From a virus, in the IMG/VR virus record IMGVR_UViG_3300037132_000276, positions 28,606-92,605 of that record: a stretch of 64,000 bases of DNA, one strand, 5' to 3'. Positions within the stretch are counted from its first letter, which is position 1. Every line of letters begins with the position of its first letter. This document shows, piece by piece, positions 215 through 9,988 of this stretch. Below the pieces are notes generated by a model. That model was not told where the DNA came from. It made no database searches and was given only the letters and a program-made list of their open reading frames with translations. The position numbers were made by a program, and so were the translations under genes.

Positions 215-694
215 TTGAATAAAAAAGAAGAAATAGGGCACAAATTAAAGGAATTTGTAAAGAATAATTATCCTACTTTAAAAGATTTTGCCGAGAAAAT
301 GGGTAAAGGGAAAACTTTTTTTACGCGTTATTTCAATGGTACGAGTACTTTGGGAGGCGAACTTCTTTCAGAGCTTCGGGAAAAAAGTGATTATAAACTC
401 GATCTTAATTGGTTATTGACTGGCAAGGGGGAACCTTTTTTGAATACAGATATTGGGGTGAAAGAAAAAATAGAACGTCCATATGATGTGGACATAATCA
501 GTCTTAGAAATGAAATACGTGATTTGAAAGCAAGCATGTATGATCTACAGGAAGAAAATAAGGAAATGAAATTATTGCTCACTGCGTTATTGAAAGATAA
601 TATCACTCTCGAAAATAAAAACTTGATATTAAGTGTGTTGTATAATAAAATTGATGATAAAGATGAAAATGCTTCTCTAGAAATATCTCGTTAA
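215..694 (+). CDS. Phage repressor-like HTH protein with C-terminal coiled coil
   Basis: N-terminal XRE-type HTH ending in LNWLLTGKGEPF, typical of CI-like N-domains; no S24 peptidase domain; divergent from a strong promoter. Confidence 0.75.
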   Translation: MNKKEEIGHKLKEFVKNNYPTLKDFAEKMGKGKTFFTRYFNGTSTLGGELLSELREKSDYKLDLNWLLTGKGEPFLNTDIGVKEKIERPYDVDIISLRNEIRDLKASMYDLQEENKEMKLLLTALLKDNITLENKNLILSVLYNKIDDKDENASLEISR

Positions 695-2182: not shown

Positions 2183-2431
2183 TTCATAATTTAATTCTGC
2201 AGTGGATCTTTAAATAAGCATAAAAATAAGATTAGTGAAAGTTGCTGTGTTAAAAGATGTAGTTCTTTTTTCATCCCTTTGGACTATTGGACGCGGCAAT
2301 CTTTATACATATGTTGATTAAGAATTATTATTGAGGAACTTTAAATAAGCATTAAGGGTTATCCGTCTTGGCAGCATATCATATATAAGCATTAAGATAG
2401 CAATTAATTCTAACAAATAAATAGAGGTTAT

Positions 2432-3427
2432 ATGTGCCCGACAAATTATACCGGATGGCGTATGCCATACGGCTATACCGCAAAGGATAAAAAACCGTTT
2501 ATCAACCCCAAAGAAGCGAAAGTAGTAAAACATATTTACGAACTTGCTCTTTCCGGAAGAAGTAAGCGCGACATTCTCTATGAGCTGAACAATAAAAAAG
2601 TTTTATCCCAAACTGGTAAAGAATGGAGTTCCGGCACCCTCGTCTATATTTTCAAAGAAGAGAAAATCATGTTTTATGCCGGGTATATAAATGGCGAAAA
2701 AGATACTCATGAACCCATTATCGATCTTCCAACTGCAAAAAAACTTATTTCCCAGTTGATTGTTAAAACACTCCGTCCACATAATAAAGAATATCTCTTA
2801 AGTAATTTAAACATTCTCCACTGTGGTTATTGCAAAGGTAAAGCCAAAACAGTTAGCCTTCCTATCGGAGTTGATCAGATGCGGGATTATTATCTTTGTA
2901 CAACCAGGCAAATGTATGGCGCTCAGTCTGGAAAATGTAATGGCAGCAAAGTTGTCCCCCAAACAGAAGTGAATGAAACCGTATTAACAGATTTAACGGT
3001 TCATGCCGGGAATATCAATCTTGAAAAATTCCTTGAATCATATACCGGCAAAATAAAGAAAGAGGTTGATACCAAGATAAAATCCATTAAAAGCGAAATA
3101 GATATTTTGATGGAAAAACAATTTAGTGCAACTTCAAAAACAGAGATAGCGGAAATAACAGAACAAATCAACTCGTTCTTACAGTCTCGACAGAATATAT
3201 TAGCTCCCTTTACTATGGTTGCAAATGTTAAAGATATACGAACTGCGAAGAAAATTAAATTCCTCCCTCTTCCGGAACAAAAAATTCTTATAAAAAAATT
3301 AATTTATCGAATAGATTTGTTCTCCGACAAAGTAATAGTTCACTATAATTTTGGCATTTCAGCAAACGGCGATAACAAAAATGAGTTGAGGATTGTTCGT
3401 GGCAAGCTGGTACGAAAGAAAAAATAG
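2432..3427 (+). CDS. Large-serine-recombinase DNA-binding portion (recombinase domain + Zn ribbon + coiled coil) lacking the catalytic resolvase domain
   Basis: PYGY...INPKEAKVVKHIYELALSG...W; YLLSN...HCGYC...YYLC...C; ends LIYRIDL...IVHY; own RBS (GAGGT) before the ATG; no YxRxS catalytic N-domain. Confidence 0.75.
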   Translation: MCPTNYTGWRMPYGYTAKDKKPFINPKEAKVVKHIYELALSGRSKRDILYELNNKKVLSQTGKEWSSGTLVYIFKEEKIMFYAGYINGEKDTHEPIIDLPTAKKLISQLIVKTLRPHNKEYLLSNLNILHCGYCKGKAKTVSLPIGVDQMRDYYLCTTRQMYGAQSGKCNGSKVVPQTEVNETVLTDLTVHAGNINLEKFLESYTGKIKKEVDTKIKSIKSEIDILMEKQFSATSKTEIAEITEQINSFLQSRQNILAPFTMVANVKDIRTAKKIKFLPLPEQKILIKKLIYRIDLFSDKVIVHYNFGISANGDNKNELRIVRGKLVRKKK

Positions 3428-4517
3428 TCCTTTTATATGGTTGAAATGGTTTGACCCCCAACAAGGTGTTTATATCAGGGAATCAACAAATACATATTTC
3501 AGACCTTCAAAGATGGGATCGACTCCATGCTTGAAAGGGACAAAAGAAGGTATAAAAAAAGCAAATCAAATTTGTGAAGAAATTGAAAGTACTATAAAGT
3601 ATAATATTGCTGTATCACACTTTCCTGCTTTAAAAAGTAGTTTGTTGATTGGCGACGCTTTTATAATGTTCAAGAATATTAACCGGAATAAAAATAAAAG
3701 CACTATTAAGAATTATGAACTTTTCTTCGAAGTTTTCAAAAAAACTTTTAACGAGAAAGATCCGGTAAATTCCATAAATAAACAGTTGGCAGACCTTTGG
3801 CTATCTTCAGTCCGGAGTATGAAAACCCGGGACGGGAAGATTTTTAGTCAGAACTATGTTTATGGATTTCAGAAGAACTTAAAAAAGTTTCTGGGATTCC
3901 TGTTCGAAAACGAGTACCTAAAACCCTTCAAAATCAGTAAAGATGTTCAGGTAAATATTGAAGTTGGTAGAAAAATTATTTTCAGTGCGGGCCACATAAA
4001 CAGGATCTTTGACAATCTCGATAAGACCAACGGCAATCTTAAAACCTGCATATATCTTCTCGCTTATACCGGATTACGGCCAACTGACATTCTTTCCATA
4101 AACGCTGAAGATATTGACCTGAAAAATAAAGCATACCAATATTACTCTCCTAAGCTCAAAAAACATATTACCGTTCCCATCCATCCAAAACTACTACCAG
4201 CGCTTAAAGAACGTCTCTCAGCTATCGGAAAGGGTAGAATAATTGAATATAGCACGCATAATGCTTTAGCTCATGCTTTCAACAAATATCTACAGTTTTT
4301 GGAAATTGACGGTTTTGATTATACGCCCCGGACGTTCCGGAAATCGTTTGATACCTGGGCTTATGGGCTGGGGATGGATACAACAGCAAACAGTCGGTTG
4401 GTCGGCCATAGCATTACAACTGCAGAAAAACATTACCGGGAAGTGTATATGAACAGCCTTCGAAAGGAATTAAATAAGTTTGAACTACCCTCAAAAAAAC
4501 AGCAAAAAAAGAAGTGA
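3393..4517 (+). CDS. int: Tyrosine recombinase / phage integrase
   Basis: LAYTGLR (R-I), RTFRKSF (HxxR box with H replaced by R), LVGHS, terminal HY; adjacent to attP. Confidence 0.92.
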   Translation: MFVASWYERKNSPFIWLKWFDPQQGVYIRESTNTYFRPSKMGSTPCLKGTKEGIKKANQICEEIESTIKYNIAVSHFPALKSSLLIGDAFIMFKNINRNKNKSTIKNYELFFEVFKKTFNEKDPVNSINKQLADLWLSSVRSMKTRDGKIFSQNYVYGFQKNLKKFLGFLFENEYLKPFKISKDVQVNIEVGRKIIFSAGHINRIFDNLDKTNGNLKTCIYLLAYTGLRPTDILSINAEDIDLKNKAYQYYSPKLKKHITVPIHPKLLPALKERLSAIGKGRIIEYSTHNALAHAFNKYLQFLEIDGFDYTPRTFRKSFDTWAYGLGMDTTANSRLVGHSITTAEKHYREVYMNSLRKELNKFELPSKKQQKKK

Positions 4518-4521
4518 TTTT

Positions 4522-4774
4522 GGCACATTATGGGCACACTGGAAATTATCCCTTTTTCTCGTCTCCGTAAGTTGTTTATTTATAATGACTTAGTTGTGAC
4601 CCCAACGGGATTCGAACCCATATTCCCGCCGTGAAAGGGCGAAAAATGGCATCTATCATATATAAGTATTTAGATGATAATAAGTGTTTTCAGTCTGATA
4701 ATGCATTTTTTCACTCTTTAATATTAAAATAATTCGCATTTTCTAACTCTAATTTAGGCACATTTCGGGCACAC
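4522..4774. other. attP region with paired arm-type direct repeats
   Basis: GGCACATTATGGGCACAC (4522-4539) and GGCACATTTCGGGCACAC (4757-4774), 16/18 identical, flank the tRNA-derived core. Confidence 0.7.
4596..4641 (-). other. attP core: 3' half of tRNA-Glu(TTC), not a complete tRNA gene
   Basis: Minus strand CGCC-CTTTCAC-GGCG (anticodon TTC), T-arm ATGGG-TTCGAAT-CCCGT, 3' acceptor strand TGGGGTCAC; no D-arm or 5' acceptor strand. Confidence 0.85.
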
Positions 4775-4783
4775 AGATTTTTA

Positions 4784-5566
4784 TCATTTTATGACATCAA
4801 AAGCATAGCCATAATTAGCAAAAAACCATGAGTTTCCGATCCCGTGACCGAACTGCAAAAAATGTTTATTGTTAATCAACGCGCCTAAATTCCAACCGAT
4901 AAGATCGGTATTCGTCTGTAATAATCCAAGTCCCGGGATTAACTTTAACCGAAACTTAGTGATATCACTTTCAACTCTCACGAACTCATCCCTATCAACA
5001 AATACCTGCAGATCTGAAACTGTTAAATATTTATTGATAAAATCAGGCGTAAATTTTTCATAACCGCTCCATTGCCCATCTGCATTCCTTGTAAGATAGA
5101 TGCTTTGTCCAAAAGGCATAAAATAGGTATGTCTCTTCATAATCGGTTTTGGATTAATCTGTACAGTATCCTTATTCTTATAGAATTCAGTCGAATCCTT
5201 GAATTCTATTTTCGAACCATAAGGCAGGCATCCGGAGGAATCCTTTCCAACATTTATTATATGTCCTTGAGTTGATGAGATTATATCTTTTAAATGAATA
5301 TTGTCCTGGGTCAATGAAAGTATTTTCTCGTCTTTCTTTTTAAGAACTTTTTCGCTATCAATTAAATTGCTTTGGATGAAAGCATATTTTTGATATAGCG
5401 TTTCATCTCCATCCTGGATTATCTTCATTGCAGTATCGTGTGCTAATTGATTCTGTTTATAGATCGCCTCCAACATCTTGTTGTTTCTTATGGTTAGGTA
5501 CAGATAAACGCCTAAAGCAATAGCGATGCAGGAGATGACTACAATTATTTTGTATTCTTTACTCAT
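4784..5566 (-). CDS. Membrane-anchored coiled-coil protein, candidate spanin
   Basis: N-terminal TM helix, coiled coil, C-terminal amphipathic beta-strands ending YGYAFDVIK; last gene of the late operon. Confidence 0.45.
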   Translation of the reverse strand: MSKEYKIIVVISCIAIALGVYLYLTIRNNKMLEAIYKQNQLAHDTAMKIIQDGDETLYQKYAFIQSNLIDSEKVLKKKDEKILSLTQDNIHLKDIISSTQGHIINVGKDSSGCLPYGSKIEFKDSTEFYKNKDTVQINPKPIMKRHTYFMPFGQSIYLTRNADGQWSGYEKFTPDFINKYLTVSDLQVFVDRDEFVRVESDITKFRLKLIPGLGLLQTNTDLIGWNLGALINNKHFLQFGHGIGNSWFFANYGYAFDVIK

Positions 5567-5583
5567 AGTAACACCAATCCTAA

Positions 5584-6051
5584 TTATTTTTCATCCGCTT
5601 CCGGTTCTTTCTCAATCGGAAGATTATTATGCCCTATAAATGGGAGCTCTGTATAATTGCATACGCCCCATCCAAGCCATAACAGCCATCCTAAAAATTT
5701 ACCATATTTAGCCACATATCTATTGTATTGATCATTATGACCGCCCTCATGCTCGATTATGTCATTTGTTCCTCGGAATCCTTGAGCAAATTGAGCCGCT
5801 GTAACATCCCAACAAATTATATTTGTATTTTTACCATTATCTGTATAATATTCACGTTTGATAGCAGCACCTAATGGCCCCAAGAATTCCCCGGATCCTA
5901 TGATTGGATAATTGTCGCTAATATATACAGTCATTCCTTTATATGATTGTACCGTTACATTCTTCCCTGCTATATCTAATAATAGTTTAGATAGATAAGG
6001 ATAGAAGACGAGGATTAAGATTATTGCCAGTGCAATGATTGAATAGATCAT
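5584..6051 (-). CDS. Membrane-anchored HExxH zinc metallopeptidase-like protein
   Basis: N-terminal TM; IIEHEGGHNDQY followed by a hydrophobic stretch and NLPIEKE. Confidence 0.55.
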   Translation of the reverse strand: MIYSIIALAIILILVFYPYLSKLLLDIAGKNVTVQSYKGMTVYISDNYPIIGSGEFLGPLGAAIKREYYTDNGKNTNIICWDVTAAQFAQGFRGTNDIIEHEGGHNDQYNRYVAKYGKFLGWLLWLGWGVCNYTELPFIGHNNLPIEKEPEADEK

Positions 6052-6094
6052 ATCATTTTTCTCCGCTAATGTTAAATACCCCTCACTATTCTAT

Positions 6095-6526
6095 TTATGT
6101 CGCCTGCACTAATCCTGCATCCACTTTTAACTGTGTGCCATAAGCGCGACAATTTTCAACAAAAGTATTATAATCTATGAACGCTTGTGGGGTCTGGGTC
6201 TTCGCAACATTATTAGCTAAGCGATTTAGTTTCAGCTCATCATCTACGCTATATTGCGCCCTGATCTTTGCAGTCACTATTTGATTTATGCTCTCATAAA
6301 GCGGGCAAGTCAAGAGGATTGGTGAGATTGTTGCAAAATCAAGTTCTGCTACTTGACATTCGGAATGTTGGTTGGTGAGGAAGTTTGGATCCTGGGTGTC
6401 CACTCCCCAATATTGTAAACCATTTACTTCGGCATACATATATGAGATTTCGCCGCTTGTGACGATCCCGAGTGTGGTATCTTGCGGAGGCGCAAGAACT
6501 GTTTTTTTAACACTGAAATAACGCAT
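6095..6526 (-). CDS. Putative tail-fibre assembly/associated protein
   Basis: KIRAQYSVDDELKL...YNTFVENCRAYG resembles small proteins that follow phage fibre genes; position. Confidence 0.45.
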   Translation of the reverse strand: MRYFSVKKTVLAPPQDTTLGIVTSGEISYMYAEVNGLQYWGVDTQDPNFLTNQHSECQVAELDFATISPILLTCPLYESINQIVTAKIRAQYSVDDELKLNRLANNVAKTQTPQAFIDYNTFVENCRAYGTQLKVDAGLVQAT

Positions 6527-7541
6527 TGTATATATCTCCTTTTTTGTTGTTAATAATCCATGTTTTTACAAAATTAATTTGATCGGGTACAACTTCTAAG
6601 ATTTTATTTACTACATAGATCAATGAATTTGTCCGTTTAGAATGGCTTAAGAATGAGGCTATGCGCGAAATGTCCGGATCTTTTTTCAGTTTCCGCTTTA
6701 TTCTAAATAGAGAACTTTTCCTGATTATTCTGATGTTAAACCAGGTCTTAAAACCTACAAAATCAATCCCGCTTCTCAAACTTCCTATTTTACTTTTCCT
6801 GTTTAGCTTGAGTTCAAGCTTTTCGATTTCCCTTTTTATTCGATTCCAACAGAAAAAAAGTTTACTCCGGCATCCATCGAGCAGAACAAAATCATCCATA
6901 TACCGAAAATAATCTTTAATCTTCAGCACTCTTTTAATGAAATTATCTATTGGGTTAAGCATCAGATTTGCAAGTATCTGACTGGTTACATTCCCCAACG
7001 CCAAACCAACGCCATGTTCTTTATCAAAAAATTTTGAGAACAGGTTTAGGGTTGGTTTACATTTTATTATTCTTTTTAATAGTCTTAATACATGTTTATG
7101 ACTTATACTATAAAAATATTTCTTGATATCAAGTTTTAGATAATATCCCTGATTTTTATATTTAATCAGAGCACGTTTAAGGCCATCGCTGGCTTTGTGT
7201 GTGCCGTATCCTTCCCTGCATGCATAACTACACGAAAGGAATCGCTTCTCAATTATTTTTCTGGTTGCTATTAACAACGCATGCTGAACAATCCTATCCT
7301 CCAAATGTGGGGCTTGAATTACTCGTTCTTTCGGTTCATGGACGGTAAACTGATATGCTGGTTTGGGATTATAATCACCGTTATCGAGTCTTATAAGTAA
7401 ATCGCTTAAGTTAACTGCAAGATTATTCTCATATAGCAAGAAATTATCCTTATATGTTTTACGTTTTTTCACTTCATTAAACGCCTGGAGTAATGTTTCG
7501 TAATTACACCAAATCTTTTTCAAATTCCCATATCTTTTCAT
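6507..7541 (-). CDS. DGR reverse transcriptase
   Basis: EPKERVI, DRIVQHA, YACREGYGTH, LKLDIKKYFYSI, GLALGNVTSQILAN (DGR-type SQ), YFRYMDDF, GIDFVGF; 344 aa without a maturase/endonuclease domain; next to TR and avd. Confidence 0.96.
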   Translation of the reverse strand: MKRYGNLKKIWCNYETLLQAFNEVKKRKTYKDNFLLYENNLAVNLSDLLIRLDNGDYNPKPAYQFTVHEPKERVIQAPHLEDRIVQHALLIATRKIIEKRFLSCSYACREGYGTHKASDGLKRALIKYKNQGYYLKLDIKKYFYSISHKHVLRLLKRIIKCKPTLNLFSKFFDKEHGVGLALGNVTSQILANLMLNPIDNFIKRVLKIKDYFRYMDDFVLLDGCRSKLFFCWNRIKREIEKLELKLNRKSKIGSLRSGIDFVGFKTWFNIRIIRKSSLFRIKRKLKKDPDISRIASFLSHSKRTNSLIYVVNKILEVVPDQINFVKTWIINNKKGDIYNALFQC

Positions 7542-7552
7542 TTTTAATTCCC

Positions 7553-7679
7553 GGATGATTAGAATTTCTAAATGTTCAATACTTTAATAATCATCCCGTT
7601 ATATTTTCTCATATTTCTTTGAGAGGACAATGTTCCCTTTAACATTGTGAGTCAATCATTTTCCCCTTTGAGGAAAATG
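7553..7679 (-). ncRNA. DGR RNA 3' spacer with stem-loops
   Basis: Inverted repeats GGATGATTA/TAATCATCC (7553-7596), ACAATGTT/AACATTGT (7627-7648) and CATTTTCC/GGAAAATG (7657-7679) between TR and RT. Confidence 0.6.
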
Positions 7680-7703
7680 CTCTTAGACATAATTTGTTAG
7701 AGT

Positions 7704-7815
7704 CAGGAACGCGCCGAAATATTGTTGTTGCTGTTCGTCCGATTGTTGTTCAAATTGAGATACCAGACACCCGCATTCGTCGTGTTGTTCCAATTGCCGA
7801 AGCGTATCGGACACA
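7704..7815 (-). repeat. DGR template repeat (TR)
   Basis: 112-bp ungapped match to 8262-8373; rich in AAC/AAT codons; all 17 mismatches at TR adenines on the coding strand. Confidence 0.97.
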
Positions 7816-7850
7816 TAGTCAAACATTGCCCTTTTGCCGCTTTTCGTATC

Positions 7851-8189
7851 CTATTGTAGTTCATCTTTTATCCACGCACCAACAAGTTTGCCAACCTCAT
7901 CAATTTTCAGTTGTGAAACTCTATGCTTTTGAGAATCTATATATTTCAACTCAAACGCAAGGTTCACAAACTGTCTTAAAACTTCATGTTTCACATTAAG
8001 CTCGCTGATCGTTGTCTTTTTGTGAAACCGCTTATTAACCGTTATGGCGGATTCAAATATTTCATATCCAAGCTCCCTTATTTTATTTGCCATCAAATAT
8101 TTTTCACTTTTCGGAAATTGCATAACCATAATGTGGTTATACAAAATCATATCCCGAATTTTCTTTACTATTAATAAATGTTCAGCCAT
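7851..8189 (-). CDS. avd: DGR accessory variability determinant (four-helix bundle)
   Basis: QFPKSEKYLMANKIR...LAFELKYI...IDEVGKLVGAWIK; lies between target and TR. Confidence 0.92.
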   Translation of the reverse strand: MAEHLLIVKKIRDMILYNHIMVMQFPKSEKYLMANKIRELGYEIFESAITVNKRFHKKTTISELNVKHEVLRQFVNLAFELKYIDSQKHRVSQLKIDEVGKLVGAWIKDELQ

Positions 8190-8219
8190 TTCTATCCTAT
8201 CACCATAAAAAAAATATAA

Positions 8220-8243
8220 GGGGATTCGCTACCGCTCATCCCC
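8220..8243 (-). promoter_or_regulatory. DGR target-recognition hairpin downstream of VR
   Basis: GGGGATGAGC-GGTA-GCGAATCCCC just after the target stop; GGTA fits the GRNA loop known from phage DGR hairpins; followed by a T-run. Confidence 0.75.
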
Positions 8244-8248
8244 ACATC

Positions 8249-9988
8249 TTAAACGTAAAGGCAGGAACGCGCCGAAAAAGAGTTGTAGCTGTACGTCCGA
8301 AAGCTGACCAAATAGAGAAACCAGACACCCGCAAACGCCGTGTTGTTCCAACTGCCGAAGCGTAGCGGACACAACTCAGAAACGATATATTGATAGAAAT
8401 AATCTGTTCCAAATTTATTAGTGCCACTAGGACTTACGGAATTATAGTTCAAAGGCAATCCACAAGCTGTAAGTTTATAAGCATTGGTTGTTCTGCTTGT
8501 CGAGAATCCAAATACTTGATTTGTGCTATTCCCGTATAATTGACCGACAGGCCCATCCCGAAATATGGGCGTTAATAGGTCAAAGTTTGCGGCAATAAAT
8601 GTCGAGTTAAAATGATCTGAAGTTGTTACGCTATTACCGCCGGTAACATTCGCAAGAGCAACGCTTTCTTTTAATGCATAAAAACTACCCGTGGTGGCTG
8701 TAAACCCGGTTCCGGAATAATCAGCTGATAGTCCCGAACTATTAACATAACTGCTGTCATAATTACGTTGTAAATAAAAAGTATTAGCATCGATAACGTT
8801 GACGGTAAAGAATGAGCCACCTATTAAATTATTCCACTCGGTTGTTGCTGCGCCGCCTGTCATTATCTGTATACCCGAAGTGTAACCATGTGTGGCAATT
8901 GTAAAAACTGCTTGAGCGGCGCGGGTAATTGCCGTGATATTTTTTGCCACAACATTGGCGGTCGTTAGCCCCTGGGCGACGATCCACTGATTGCCGTTAA
9001 TATCGGAAACACCACAATTTTGACCATTGTGGGTTGTCTTTGAAAAAGTTGAACCACTTCCGGTTTTCTTTGCCGCTGTTTGCGTGCTCCAATAACTATC
9101 GGTACATATTGTGAAGGTCACCGTTGCATCGTTAACGTCAGCGGTTGTATTATTACAGCCTTTCGGGAAGTTGATGGCCCCAGTCCCATCATACCATGCG
9201 CAATATGCGGTACTTGTTGCCGTTTGTCCGTGTGCTAAGCTCAGTAATGCGATTGCATCGAGGATAAAAATTGATGTGGCGGCAAAATTATTACCACGGG
9301 ATTTAGCTGCTGCCCAAGCCCCGCCTAGATTATCTGCCGGCGCCTGTCCGTTGCTTTTACAATTGGAGAAACTTCCTGCATAAGCGTTGCTTCCATTATT
9401 GTTTGTCGTTGCCGCTGAAGAAATTGGATTGCCGTTTTTAATCGATGATGCTATGCCCGCGGTGTTGTAAACAAAATTAGTCATTGACCAATCGTATTTA
9501 TCGAGGAAGAACCCTTCTTTAATAGATCCGCCGTCGACAAATGATCTATGAAGCGCGAAACTTGCCGCATTTGCATCTGTTTCATTTGCAAATGAGCGCT
9601 CGCCTAGTATATAAAGCGTATTATCAGAATTATACTTATAATAGAACTTCGGCACCCATACCATTATCGAATTATCGGTTAAACACAGATAATTTCCATA
9701 ATTGTCGTTGCCGATGGTGAACGTTCCGGAAAGCGGAATCATATACGCGGGCAAAAGACTTGCCGGGCAGATACCGACTCCGAATCCTTGCCCCCCTTGA
9801 ATCCCTATGTCGTTGACCGCGGTTGGAAATCCGGCTTTCGCCAGCACTACTTGAGGACTTATACGCTTTAATTTGTTACTTAAATTTGTTTCGCTCGCAT
9901 CTAAGACCAACAACGTGTCGTTGTTGAGATCAATGTCATAAAGAAGATCAAGCGTATCAACGTTCTTACCCACTATTTCTGTTGCCAT
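8249..9988 (-). CDS. DGR target: receptor-binding / tropism protein with C-terminal CLec-like variable region
   Basis: IGIQGGQGFGVG, VWVPKFYY, GFFLDKY, DINGNQW; C-terminus PLRFGSWNNTAFAGVWFLYLVSFRTYSYNSFSARSC encoded by VR. Confidence 0.92.
   Translation of the reverse strand: MATEIVGKNVDTLDLLYDIDLNNDTLLVLDASETNLSNKLKRISPQVVLAKAGFPTAVNDIGIQGGQGFGVGICPASLLPAYMIPLSGTFTIGNDNYGNYLCLTDNSIMVWVPKFYYKYNSDNTLYILGERSFANETDANAASFALHRSFVDGGSIKEGFFLDKYDWSMTNFVYNTAGIASSIKNGNPISSAATTNNNGSNAYAGSFSNCKSNGQAPADNLGGAWAAAKSRGNNFAATSIFILDAIALLSLAHGQTATSTAYCAWYDGTGAINFPKGCNNTTADVNDATVTFTICTDSYWSTQTAAKKTGSGSTFSKTTHNGQNCGVSDINGNQWIVAQGLTTANVVAKNITAITRAAQAVFTIATHGYTSGIQIMTGGAATTEWNNLIGGSFFTVNVIDANTFYLQRNYDSSYVNSSGLSADYSGTGFTATTGSFYALKESVALANVTGGNSVTTSDHFNSTFIAANFDLLTPIFRDGPVGQLYGNSTNQVFGFSTSRTTNAYKLTACGLPLNYNSVSPSGTNKFGTDYFYQYIVSELCPLRFGSWNNTAFAGVWFLYLVSFRTYSYNSFSARSCLYV
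8262..8373 (-). repeat. DGR variable repeat (VR)
   Basis: Copy of TR with 11 A>T, 4 A>G and 2 A>C changes; ends in the GC element CGGCGCG. Confidence 0.97.

Follow-up and report, generated by a model that had tools for sequence, protein, structure and literature searches.

A phage gene for a serine-integrase body without its catalytic head overlaps, and appears to be inherited with, a tyrosine integrase gene

In a 64,000-nucleotide stretch of phage DNA (hereafter the window), we analyzed a gene of 331 amino acids (aa) that encodes the body of a large serine recombinase (LSR) without the catalytic head and that overlaps the gene of a tyrosine integrase adjoining the phage attachment site (attP). 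The window comprises bases 28606-92605 of the linear, 92,605-bp IMG/VR virus record IMGVR_UViG_3300037132_000276, whose completeness was estimated by CheckV at ~72% and whose source is a phage of Ignavibacteria-type bacteria. This headless LSR-like gene, termed tLSR, represents a deep and seemingly undescribed family, and to judge from its sequence and surroundings tLSR is most likely a helper of phage integration or excision.

Phage integration is regarded as having two distinct solutions, tyrosine and serine integrases, and each class has accessory factors of its own. At the locus described here, a complete serine-integrase body of the kind that reads attachment (att) sites, minus its catalytic head, appears to have long been kept as the fixed partner of a tyrosine integrase.

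A serine recombinase body that starts at the recombinase domain

A sequence-only reading of this DNA had described an open reading frame (ORF) of 331 aa with its own ribosome-binding site that starts exactly at the recombinase domain (RD), and the analysis bore this out: an AGAGG stands 4 nt upstream of the ATG and the protein has the GWRMPYGY motif close to its N-terminus (Table 1). The protein matches PF07508 (Recombinase) over residues 26-99 (E 8.8e-11, 42.4 bits against a Pfam cut-off of 21.1) and PF13408 (Zn_ribbon_recom) over residues 128-188 (24.5 bits, slightly below the cut-off of 25.3). The zinc ribbon with its four cysteines and the coiled coil are thus kept, as had been claimed. 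Pfam gave no match to the Resolvase domain PF00239 in this protein. Among phage protein families, tLSR matches phrog_95, an 'integrase' family of the serine type, over profile positions 240-564 of 651 only.

The catalytic domain was also sought outside the annotated gene. Upstream of the tLSR ATG the open frame adds just 6 codons (337 versus 331 aa), and a six-frame search for PF00239 in the whole 92.6-kb record gave no match at E ≤ 1, with 13 of 14 control genomes positive in the same search. The locus therefore holds neither a catalytic domain nor a remnant of one, in agreement with the sequence-only reading. A 72-kb record of a relative, searched in six frames, was likewise without a PF00239 match at E ≤ 1.

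Predicted structure of tLSR

We built an AlphaFold2 model of tLSR from a 116-row alignment (a 9-sequence alignment had given a predicted local distance difference test score, pLDDT, of 46). The model has a pLDDT of 93.4 and a predicted template-modelling score of 0.81, and it divides into an RD (residues ~10-110), a zinc-ribbon domain (ZD) made of residues 128-192 and 291-327, and a two-helix coiled-coil hairpin (residues 197-261) within the ribbon. The two helices of the hairpin, residues 197-232 and 236-261, have pLDDT values of ~97.

Foldseek returned 4kis_A, the C-terminal fragment of the Listeria A118/LI integrase on DNA, as the first match to the model (E 1e-11), followed by the SPbeta, phiC31, and Bxb1 integrases. 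Alignment of the model with the SPbeta, phiC31, A118, and Bxb1 integrases by VIA-align gave Z scores of 12.9-14.8 over 270-290 residues, covering LSR residues ~160-590. Residue 1 of the model corresponds to residues 160-162 in the SPbeta and phiC31 integrases and to residue 142 in A118, just past helix E, the helix that links the catalytic domain to the body and forms the dimer and tetramer interface. Helix E is absent from tLSR according to this structural alignment, and the matches to full LSRs likewise begin at about residue 147-160. A profile of the tLSR family compared with the PDB matched 4KIS (entry title 'Crystal Structure of a LSR-DNA Complex') with an E value of 5e-19, positions 10-305 falling on chain residues 24-319. 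On the predicted model, tLSR is the natural equivalent of the C-terminal domain (CTD) fragment in 4KIS. Without a resolvase domain and helix E, tLSR can neither cleave DNA nor assemble into the catalytic dimer or tetramer.

We also predicted a complex of the integrase with tLSR; its score of 0.16 (mark 0.32) was counted neither for nor against a contact between the two proteins.

A family of headless proteins

Eight relatives with 56-73% identity to tLSR are all 322-332 aa long and share the start M...Y.GWR.PYGY, in which G8, W9, R10, P12, Y13, G14, and Y15 are invariant across the close family. A profile search of 1.84 billion protein representatives (50% clusters) extended the family much further: the ~50 best matches (E 1e-161 to 1e-21) are nearly all 284-336 aa long and match from residues 1-16, and full-length LSRs, with 440-680 aa and matches that start around residue 150, enter only near E 1e-18. 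All 57 family members that we tested contain both PF07508 and PF13408, and none contains PF00239. Among the same 57 proteins the zinc ligands C131, C134, and C156 are invariant, and C169 is present in at least 90%.

In a FastTree phylogeny of the shared columns, all 62 headless members fall into a single split (Shimodaira-Hasegawa-like support 92), with 49 full-length LSRs and five other short forms (P0119, P0134, P0138, P0170, and P0191) on the other side. Given the shared length, start, and zinc ligands, together with this single split, the catalytic head was therefore probably lost once, long ago, and the body has since been kept under constraint. The sequence comparisons support the view that tLSR is a domesticated and conserved LSR DNA-binding module and not a recent deletion or the remnant of one; the opposite case, with relatives carrying a full-length LSR at this place, was not encountered, and the close relatives have the same start as tLSR.

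The named sources of family members are metagenome-assembled genomes of Ignavibacteria, Melioribacteraceae, and Ignavibacteriaceae, and one 'Aquicultor' bin. Some members lie on contigs of 0.35-4.7 Mb and are therefore probably encoded by prophages. Scans of metagenomes, genomes, and viral contigs by alignment and by degenerate pattern found no close relatives of tLSR or of the integrase, and the viral contigs yielded one distant member (L008, described below). In a tblastn search of the INPHARED phages, tLSR matched full-length LSRs only and a second family member matched nothing. A plasmid search returned LSRs only, besides one group of three genes from Ruminococcus albus in which a headless gene stands beside a matched LSR.

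Three further proteins retrieved with the profile, P0093 (629 aa), P0097 (801 aa), and P0108 (847 aa), each match its N-terminal recombinase-domain part 5-7 times. They seem to be tandem arrays of recombinase domains, an unusual architecture.

Association with a tyrosine integrase

The gene downstream of tLSR encodes a tyrosine integrase that matches PF00589 (E 2.6e-13, 50.5 bits against a cut-off of 27.1); no other tyrosine recombinase was found in the record. That the integrase is intact and that the two genes overlap had both been noted from the sequence and both stand; the start codon was revised from TTG 3393 to GTG 3399 because all ten homologues of the integrase begin with MASWY, so that the overlap now measures 29 nt. 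Residues R229, R316, H339, and Y348 are invariant among 11 aligned integrases, their roles being assigned by inspection of the motifs. The HxxR box reads R-T-F-R (residues 313-316) in all 11, with Arg313 in place of the first His. The N-terminal region has a faint match to Arm-DNA-bind_2 (E 0.13).

In order to learn whether the two genes belong together, we looked for homologues of the integrase beside relatives of tLSR. Pairing was judged by identical source and identical size of the longest contig, and by accession order, and not from DNA. By this measure ten relatives, some of them just 28-30% identical to tLSR, seem to be encoded on the same contig as a homologue of this integrase, so the pairing seen in the window finds support beyond it. 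An integrase was matched for 6 of the 8 close relatives, on contigs of 20267, 7122, 5375, 22791, 6534, and 6441 bp; for the 20,267-bp contig, the recombinase (MHB8840991.1) and the integrase (MHB8840992.1) have consecutive NCBI accessions. It was also matched for 4 of 20 distant members, namely the pairs P0050/P0019 (33682 bp), P0054/P0032 (3249 bp), P0058/P0022 (88740 bp), and P0066/P0020 (3001 bp), in which tLSR is 28-30% and the integrase 36-50% identical to its counterpart in the window. The two genes total ~2.1 kb, and on contigs of 3.0-3.2 kb they must therefore lie close together, if the match means one contig. A third homologue search (profile A3) added no further pairs.

The identity matrices of 11 tLSR/integrase pairs are strongly correlated (r = 0.90, Mantel p ~2e-4), which shows co-inheritance as a module; by itself it does not show co-evolution. 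Taken from these sequence comparisons, co-inheritance of tLSR with the integrase across deep divergence is supported.

The overlap itself also appears to be conserved in the close relatives. In seven of them tLSR ends with NGKLVSKKK and a stop codon, and the apparent partner integrases begin with MASWYPRKNS; back-translation indicates that the two ends can share a single stretch of DNA, read in frames one base apart, as in the window. We also weighed, and rejected, a programmed frameshift at AAG-AAA-AAA-TAG that would fuse tLSR to the integrase. The site is not a canonical slippery sequence, the integrase lies in the +1 frame, the relative P0009 ends before this stretch, and no fusion of ~700 aa was present among the best 150 representatives.

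The distant member L008, on an IMG/VR contig, is a protein of 288 aa with 31% identity to the family query, and its gene follows one for a LexA-like CI repressor. Beginning 10 nt after it, a 72-aa ORF runs off the contig; the nearest ESM-Atlas clusters of this ORF are arm-DNA-binding domains of integrases (score 0.94). An hhalign comparison with the integrase alignment gave a probability of 1%, which is not significant, and Pfam gave no match. We treat an integrase arm-binding domain at this position as a lead only.

The attachment site

The sequence-only reading had placed attP beside the integrase gene, and a 266-bp non-coding stretch immediately past that gene indeed holds a core resembling the 3' part of tRNA-Glu with arm repeats on both sides (Table 1). 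The arm repeat GGCACA-N4-GGGCACAC occurs twice in the 64 kb, both times flanking the core, and none of 100 shuffles yielded two copies. Each repeat consists of two near-identical half motifs 11 bp apart. Paired half motifs are the usual appearance of the arm-type sites bound by integrase N-domains, and for this reason the GGCACA repeats resemble sites of the integrase more than sites of tLSR.

A tandem repeat of 21 bp is situated between the core and the right arm repeat, and none of 1000 dinucleotide shuffles of the 266-bp attP reproduced one. A footprint of ~21 bp is expected for one body of RD and ZD on an LSR half-site, and in the attP of phage lambda Xis binds between the core and an arm site. 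Because the size of its unit fits this footprint and its position recalls that of lambda Xis, the 21-bp repeat is the best candidate for a tLSR site, and we predict binding there rather than at the GGCACA repeats. The architecture of attP is non-random and has room for an accessory factor.

One half of the arm repeat recurs at the start of tLSR. The sequence GGGCACAT, on the minus strand at 2432-2439, matches a half motif and overlaps the tLSR start codon; it could be an operator or a chance occurrence. The motif GGCACA is found 29 times in the window, against ~19 expected.

Possible functions of tLSR

The explanation that we prefer, with a probability of about one half, is that tLSR serves as a sequence-specific accessory subunit in the recombination complex of the tyrosine integrase. 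tLSR would be a catalytically inert descendant of an LSR that keeps just the parts that read att sites (RD, zinc ribbon, and coiled coil), and it would be made together with the integrase from the overlapping genes. It would bind as a monomer to arm sites of attP, the 21-bp tandem repeat at 4675-4716 being the candidate, and would shape or bridge the DNA, through bending or possibly through contacts of the coiled coil. In this manner the protein might assist or direct the insertion of the phage at tRNA-Glu or its excision from there, as a directionality factor or as an integration cofactor comparable to Orf2 and Orf3 of the haloarchaeal pleolipovirus SNJ2. We infer the binding of tLSR at attP, and with it any effect on recombination or its direction. 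The tLSR gene occupies the position typical of xis, directly upstream of int, overlapping it, and on the side away from att. No match to an HTH_17-type excisionase was found in the record, which also has no resolvase domain and no second recombinase.

Several points weigh against an accessory subunit or narrow its possible role. A partner integrase was not identified for 2 of the 8 close relatives (contigs of 92421 and 40588 bp) or for 16 of the 20 distant members, which says little, since the integrases came from a word-limited search that yielded 35 proteins. Contig sharing was deduced from matching size and source for all pairs but the one whose accessions are consecutive. The 21-bp repeat was assigned to tLSR by size and position alone, and the record is estimated to be just 72% complete. 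Finally, a constitutive cofactor is somewhat favored over a switchable directionality factor because tLSR is presumably co-translated with the integrase.

A more far-reaching arrangement would be a two-part hybrid recombinase, with tLSR as an obligatory subunit whose RD and ZD read the att sites and whose coiled coil pairs the partners and sets the direction, the integrase being left with the chemistry only. The tight translational coupling and the co-inheritance would fit it, as would the retention of the full att-reading and coiled-coil apparatus at a length that is constant across the family despite the varying sequence. However, at 372 aa the integrase is of full size, it possesses an N-terminal region of its own, and it is accompanied by classical arm repeats around a tRNA core, so it looks self-sufficient in site recognition; the 3' end of a tRNA gene is moreover a target typical of tyrosine integrases that act alone or with small cofactors. 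We consider such a hybrid rather unlikely. If it existed, a tyrosine recombinase could be given, in trans, the logic by which serine integrases recognize sites and control direction. A transcriptional role outside the recombination complex is also unlikely. The LSR body would then have been recruited to repress or activate the lysogeny block, including int, its own gene, and the putative moron upstream. tLSR does share its rightward block with a CI-like repressor gene, and a single GGGCACAT lies over its start codon, but one copy means little because GGCACA is more frequent in the window than expected. The linkage is also specific to this integrase lineage, even on contigs of ~3 kb, and it is not evident why a plain regulator would require a coiled coil or translational coupling to int.

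The remaining alternatives explain less of the evidence that we gathered. In LSRs, pairing of subunits through the coiled coil controls synapsis, and a dead LSR body might poison rival serine integrases by occupying their att sites or capturing their coiled coils, which would amount to superinfection exclusion. In favor of this, a headless copy might in principle act in a dominant-negative way, the gene lies in the lysogeny block, and other headless forms adjoin full LSRs, one of them being the central gene of the triplet on R. albus pRUMAL02. Such a decoy would leave the conserved overlap and the co-inheritance with the tyrosine integrase unexplained, and it would have to track its targets, whereas the coiled-coil sequence is poorly conserved at depth; we also know of no LSR-bearing competitor for these hosts, and we regard this role as very unlikely. 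It is highly improbable that tLSR is one half of a split serine recombinase whose resolvase domain is supplied in trans by another phage or host gene. The gene for that domain could be missing from a record that is ~72% complete, but PF00239 was found neither there nor in the 72-kb record of the relative, tLSR is without the helix E that would join a catalytic domain to the body, and the conserved neighbor is a tyrosine integrase and not a resolvase domain. A non-functional remnant of a serine integrase that the tyrosine integrase displaced is scarcely credible. Length, start, and zinc ligands are kept throughout one lineage, sampled here with at least 62 members and reaching down to 22-30% identity, and tLSR has diverged to an extent comparable to that of the neighboring integrase.

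If tLSR is a cofactor, as we prefer, the accessory or directionality factors of tyrosine integrases would gain a new structural class, and the module of RD, ZD, and coiled coil would work as a free-standing DNA-recognition unit in nature. A natural trans-acting module for targeting or directionality would be of practical interest, both integrase classes being tools of genome engineering. The family offers a ready test set of ~60 clusters, each presumably with its own att site.

Comparison with known systems

tLSR has the same three elements, in the same order, as the C-terminal region of LSRs such as the A118/LI integrase (CTD, PDB 4KIS/6DNW), phiC31 Int, SPbeta SprA/YokA, and Bxb1 Int. It is almost equal in extent to the engineered CTD fragment of 4KIS, which was crystallised on an attP half-site. 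In contrast to the LSRs, tLSR is encoded separately, from a start codon of its own. The sampled full-length LSRs lie outside its lineage, and it accompanies a tyrosine integrase where an LSR would itself be the integrase. tLSR has neither the catalytic domain nor helix E, the two features that define the enzyme family, and is therefore no serine recombinase.

With directionality factors of the Xis type, tLSR has in common the position of its gene (upstream of int, overlapping, and on the same strand) and the presence of direct repeats in attP between the core and an arm site; xis of phage lambda overlaps int likewise. Xis proteins are winged helices of 55-100 aa, whereas tLSR has 331 aa and three domains and is related to them neither in sequence nor in fold.

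The integrase of SNJ2 needs the co-transcribed Orf2 and Orf3 for integration (PMC5861418). It is likewise a tyrosine integrase that targets a tRNA gene and has operon-encoded cofactors, needed in one direction, that of integration (PMC5861418). SNJ2 differs in being archaeal, in its two small accessory proteins, which are unrelated to serine recombinases, and in the family of its integrase.

Genes annotated as 'recombinase family protein' without a resolvase domain also exist elsewhere, as in R. albus (WP_013483879.1) and in Atlas clusters of 298-356 aa from Bacillota. They have the same combination of Recombinase domain and zinc ribbon without PF00239 at ~290-350 aa, but they lie beside serine recombinases and not beside a tyrosine integrase, and they are ~25% identical to tLSR. 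The R. albus gene and the Atlas clusters were left out of the tree. As far as we could find, none of these forms has been characterised. In the literature we found no description of a headless LSR or of an LSR-type (Recombinase/Zn-ribbon) accessory of tyrosine recombinases; coverage was incomplete, so novelty is not proven.

Two arrangements of serine recombinase genes came up during these searches. On plasmid pRUMAL02 of Ruminococcus albus 7 (4512-8533), three 'recombinase family' genes stand in a row, the middle one encoding a protein of 289 aa with Recombinase domain and zinc ribbon but no Resolvase domain, between two full serine recombinases. At the genome end of phage IMGVR 15682261 (PV036457.1, 4713-8028) there is another trio: the first gene encodes 440 aa with a partial Resolvase domain, a Recombinase domain, and a zinc ribbon, the second a 143-aa 'DNA invertase' that matches the Recombinase domain only, and the third a 525-aa 'integrase'.

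Genomic context

The tLSR locus lies in the middle of the genome, inside a rightward block of lysogeny genes that runs from a CI-like repressor through a 460-aa tetratricopeptide-repeat (TPR)/membrane protein, tLSR, and the tyrosine integrase to attP. All genes to the right of attP, including the tail genes and a diversity-generating retroelement, are on the opposite strand, and the early genes upstream of the window are likewise leftward. The features of the locus are collected in Table 1.

Table 1 Features of the tLSR locus, in window coordinates.
Feature	Coordinates	Strand	Evidence
CI-like helix-turn-helix (HTH) repressor gene, first of the rightward lysogeny block	215..694	+	phrog_8/phrog_4 transcriptional regulator/repressor, E 5e-7 and 1e-6; weak HTH_19 match
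Shine-Dalgarno-like AGAGG, 4 nt ahead of the tLSR ATG	2423..2427	+	direct sequence reading
tLSR (headless large-serine-recombinase-like gene), 331 aa; RD, zinc ribbon, and coiled coil, without catalytic domain and helix E	2432..3427	+	
RD, residues ~10-110, beginning at the conserved GWRMPYGY	2459..2761	+	PF07508 match; model elements E15-24 and H26-109
Zinc-ribbon domain, first part, residues ~128-192, with Cys131/Cys134/Cys156/Cys169	2813..3007	+	PF13408 match
Coiled-coil hairpin, residues 197-261, inserted in the zinc-ribbon domain	3020..3214	+	AlphaFold2 helices; aligned with the coiled-coil region of LSR structures
C-terminal beta strands, residues 291-327, completing the zinc-ribbon domain	3302..3412	+	AlphaFold2 strands; 4KIS aligned to profile position 305
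Tyrosine integrase, 372 aa from GTG 3399, with GAGGA at 3388-3392	3399..4517	+	PF00589; phrog_1 integrase, E 1e-28
Overlap of tLSR 3' end and integrase 5' end, 29 nt; integrase frame +1 relative to tLSR	3399..3427	+	
attP left arm repeat GGCACA-N4-GGGCACAC, candidate integrase arm-type site	4522..4539	+	
attP core, tRNA-like 3' part, anticodon loop CUUUCAC (Glu, UUC)	4597..4653	-	Rfam tRNA, 25.6 bits, E 0.004, gathering score 29
Tandem 21-bp direct repeat, 16/21 identical, between core and right arm repeat; candidate tLSR site	4675..4716	+	
attP right arm repeat GGCACA-N4-GGGCACAC, same orientation as the left	4757..4774	+	

Ahead of the CI-like repressor gene, a minus-strand sigma-70 promoter at 189-161 with a perfect consensus (TTGACA-17-TATAAT, 12/12) reads away from it, back-to-back with a weaker, plus-strand promoter-like site at 183-212. 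The pair at 161-212 resembles a divergent immunity switch. The 460-aa protein (800-2182) encoded between the repressor and the recombination genes has weak TPR matches, hydrophobic segments at its N- and C-termini, and no PHROG family; it may be a moron expressed in lysogeny.

At window positions 6095-9988, a reverse transcriptase ORF (6507-7541, minus strand) adjoins a 579-aa protein, an arrangement as in a diversity-generating retroelement. A reverse transcriptase gene, of 369 aa, was also seen on the IMG/VR contig 3300037455_001390 (20-3477), where it lies on the opposite strand ~1 kb from a serine recombinase gene that is cut at the contig start.

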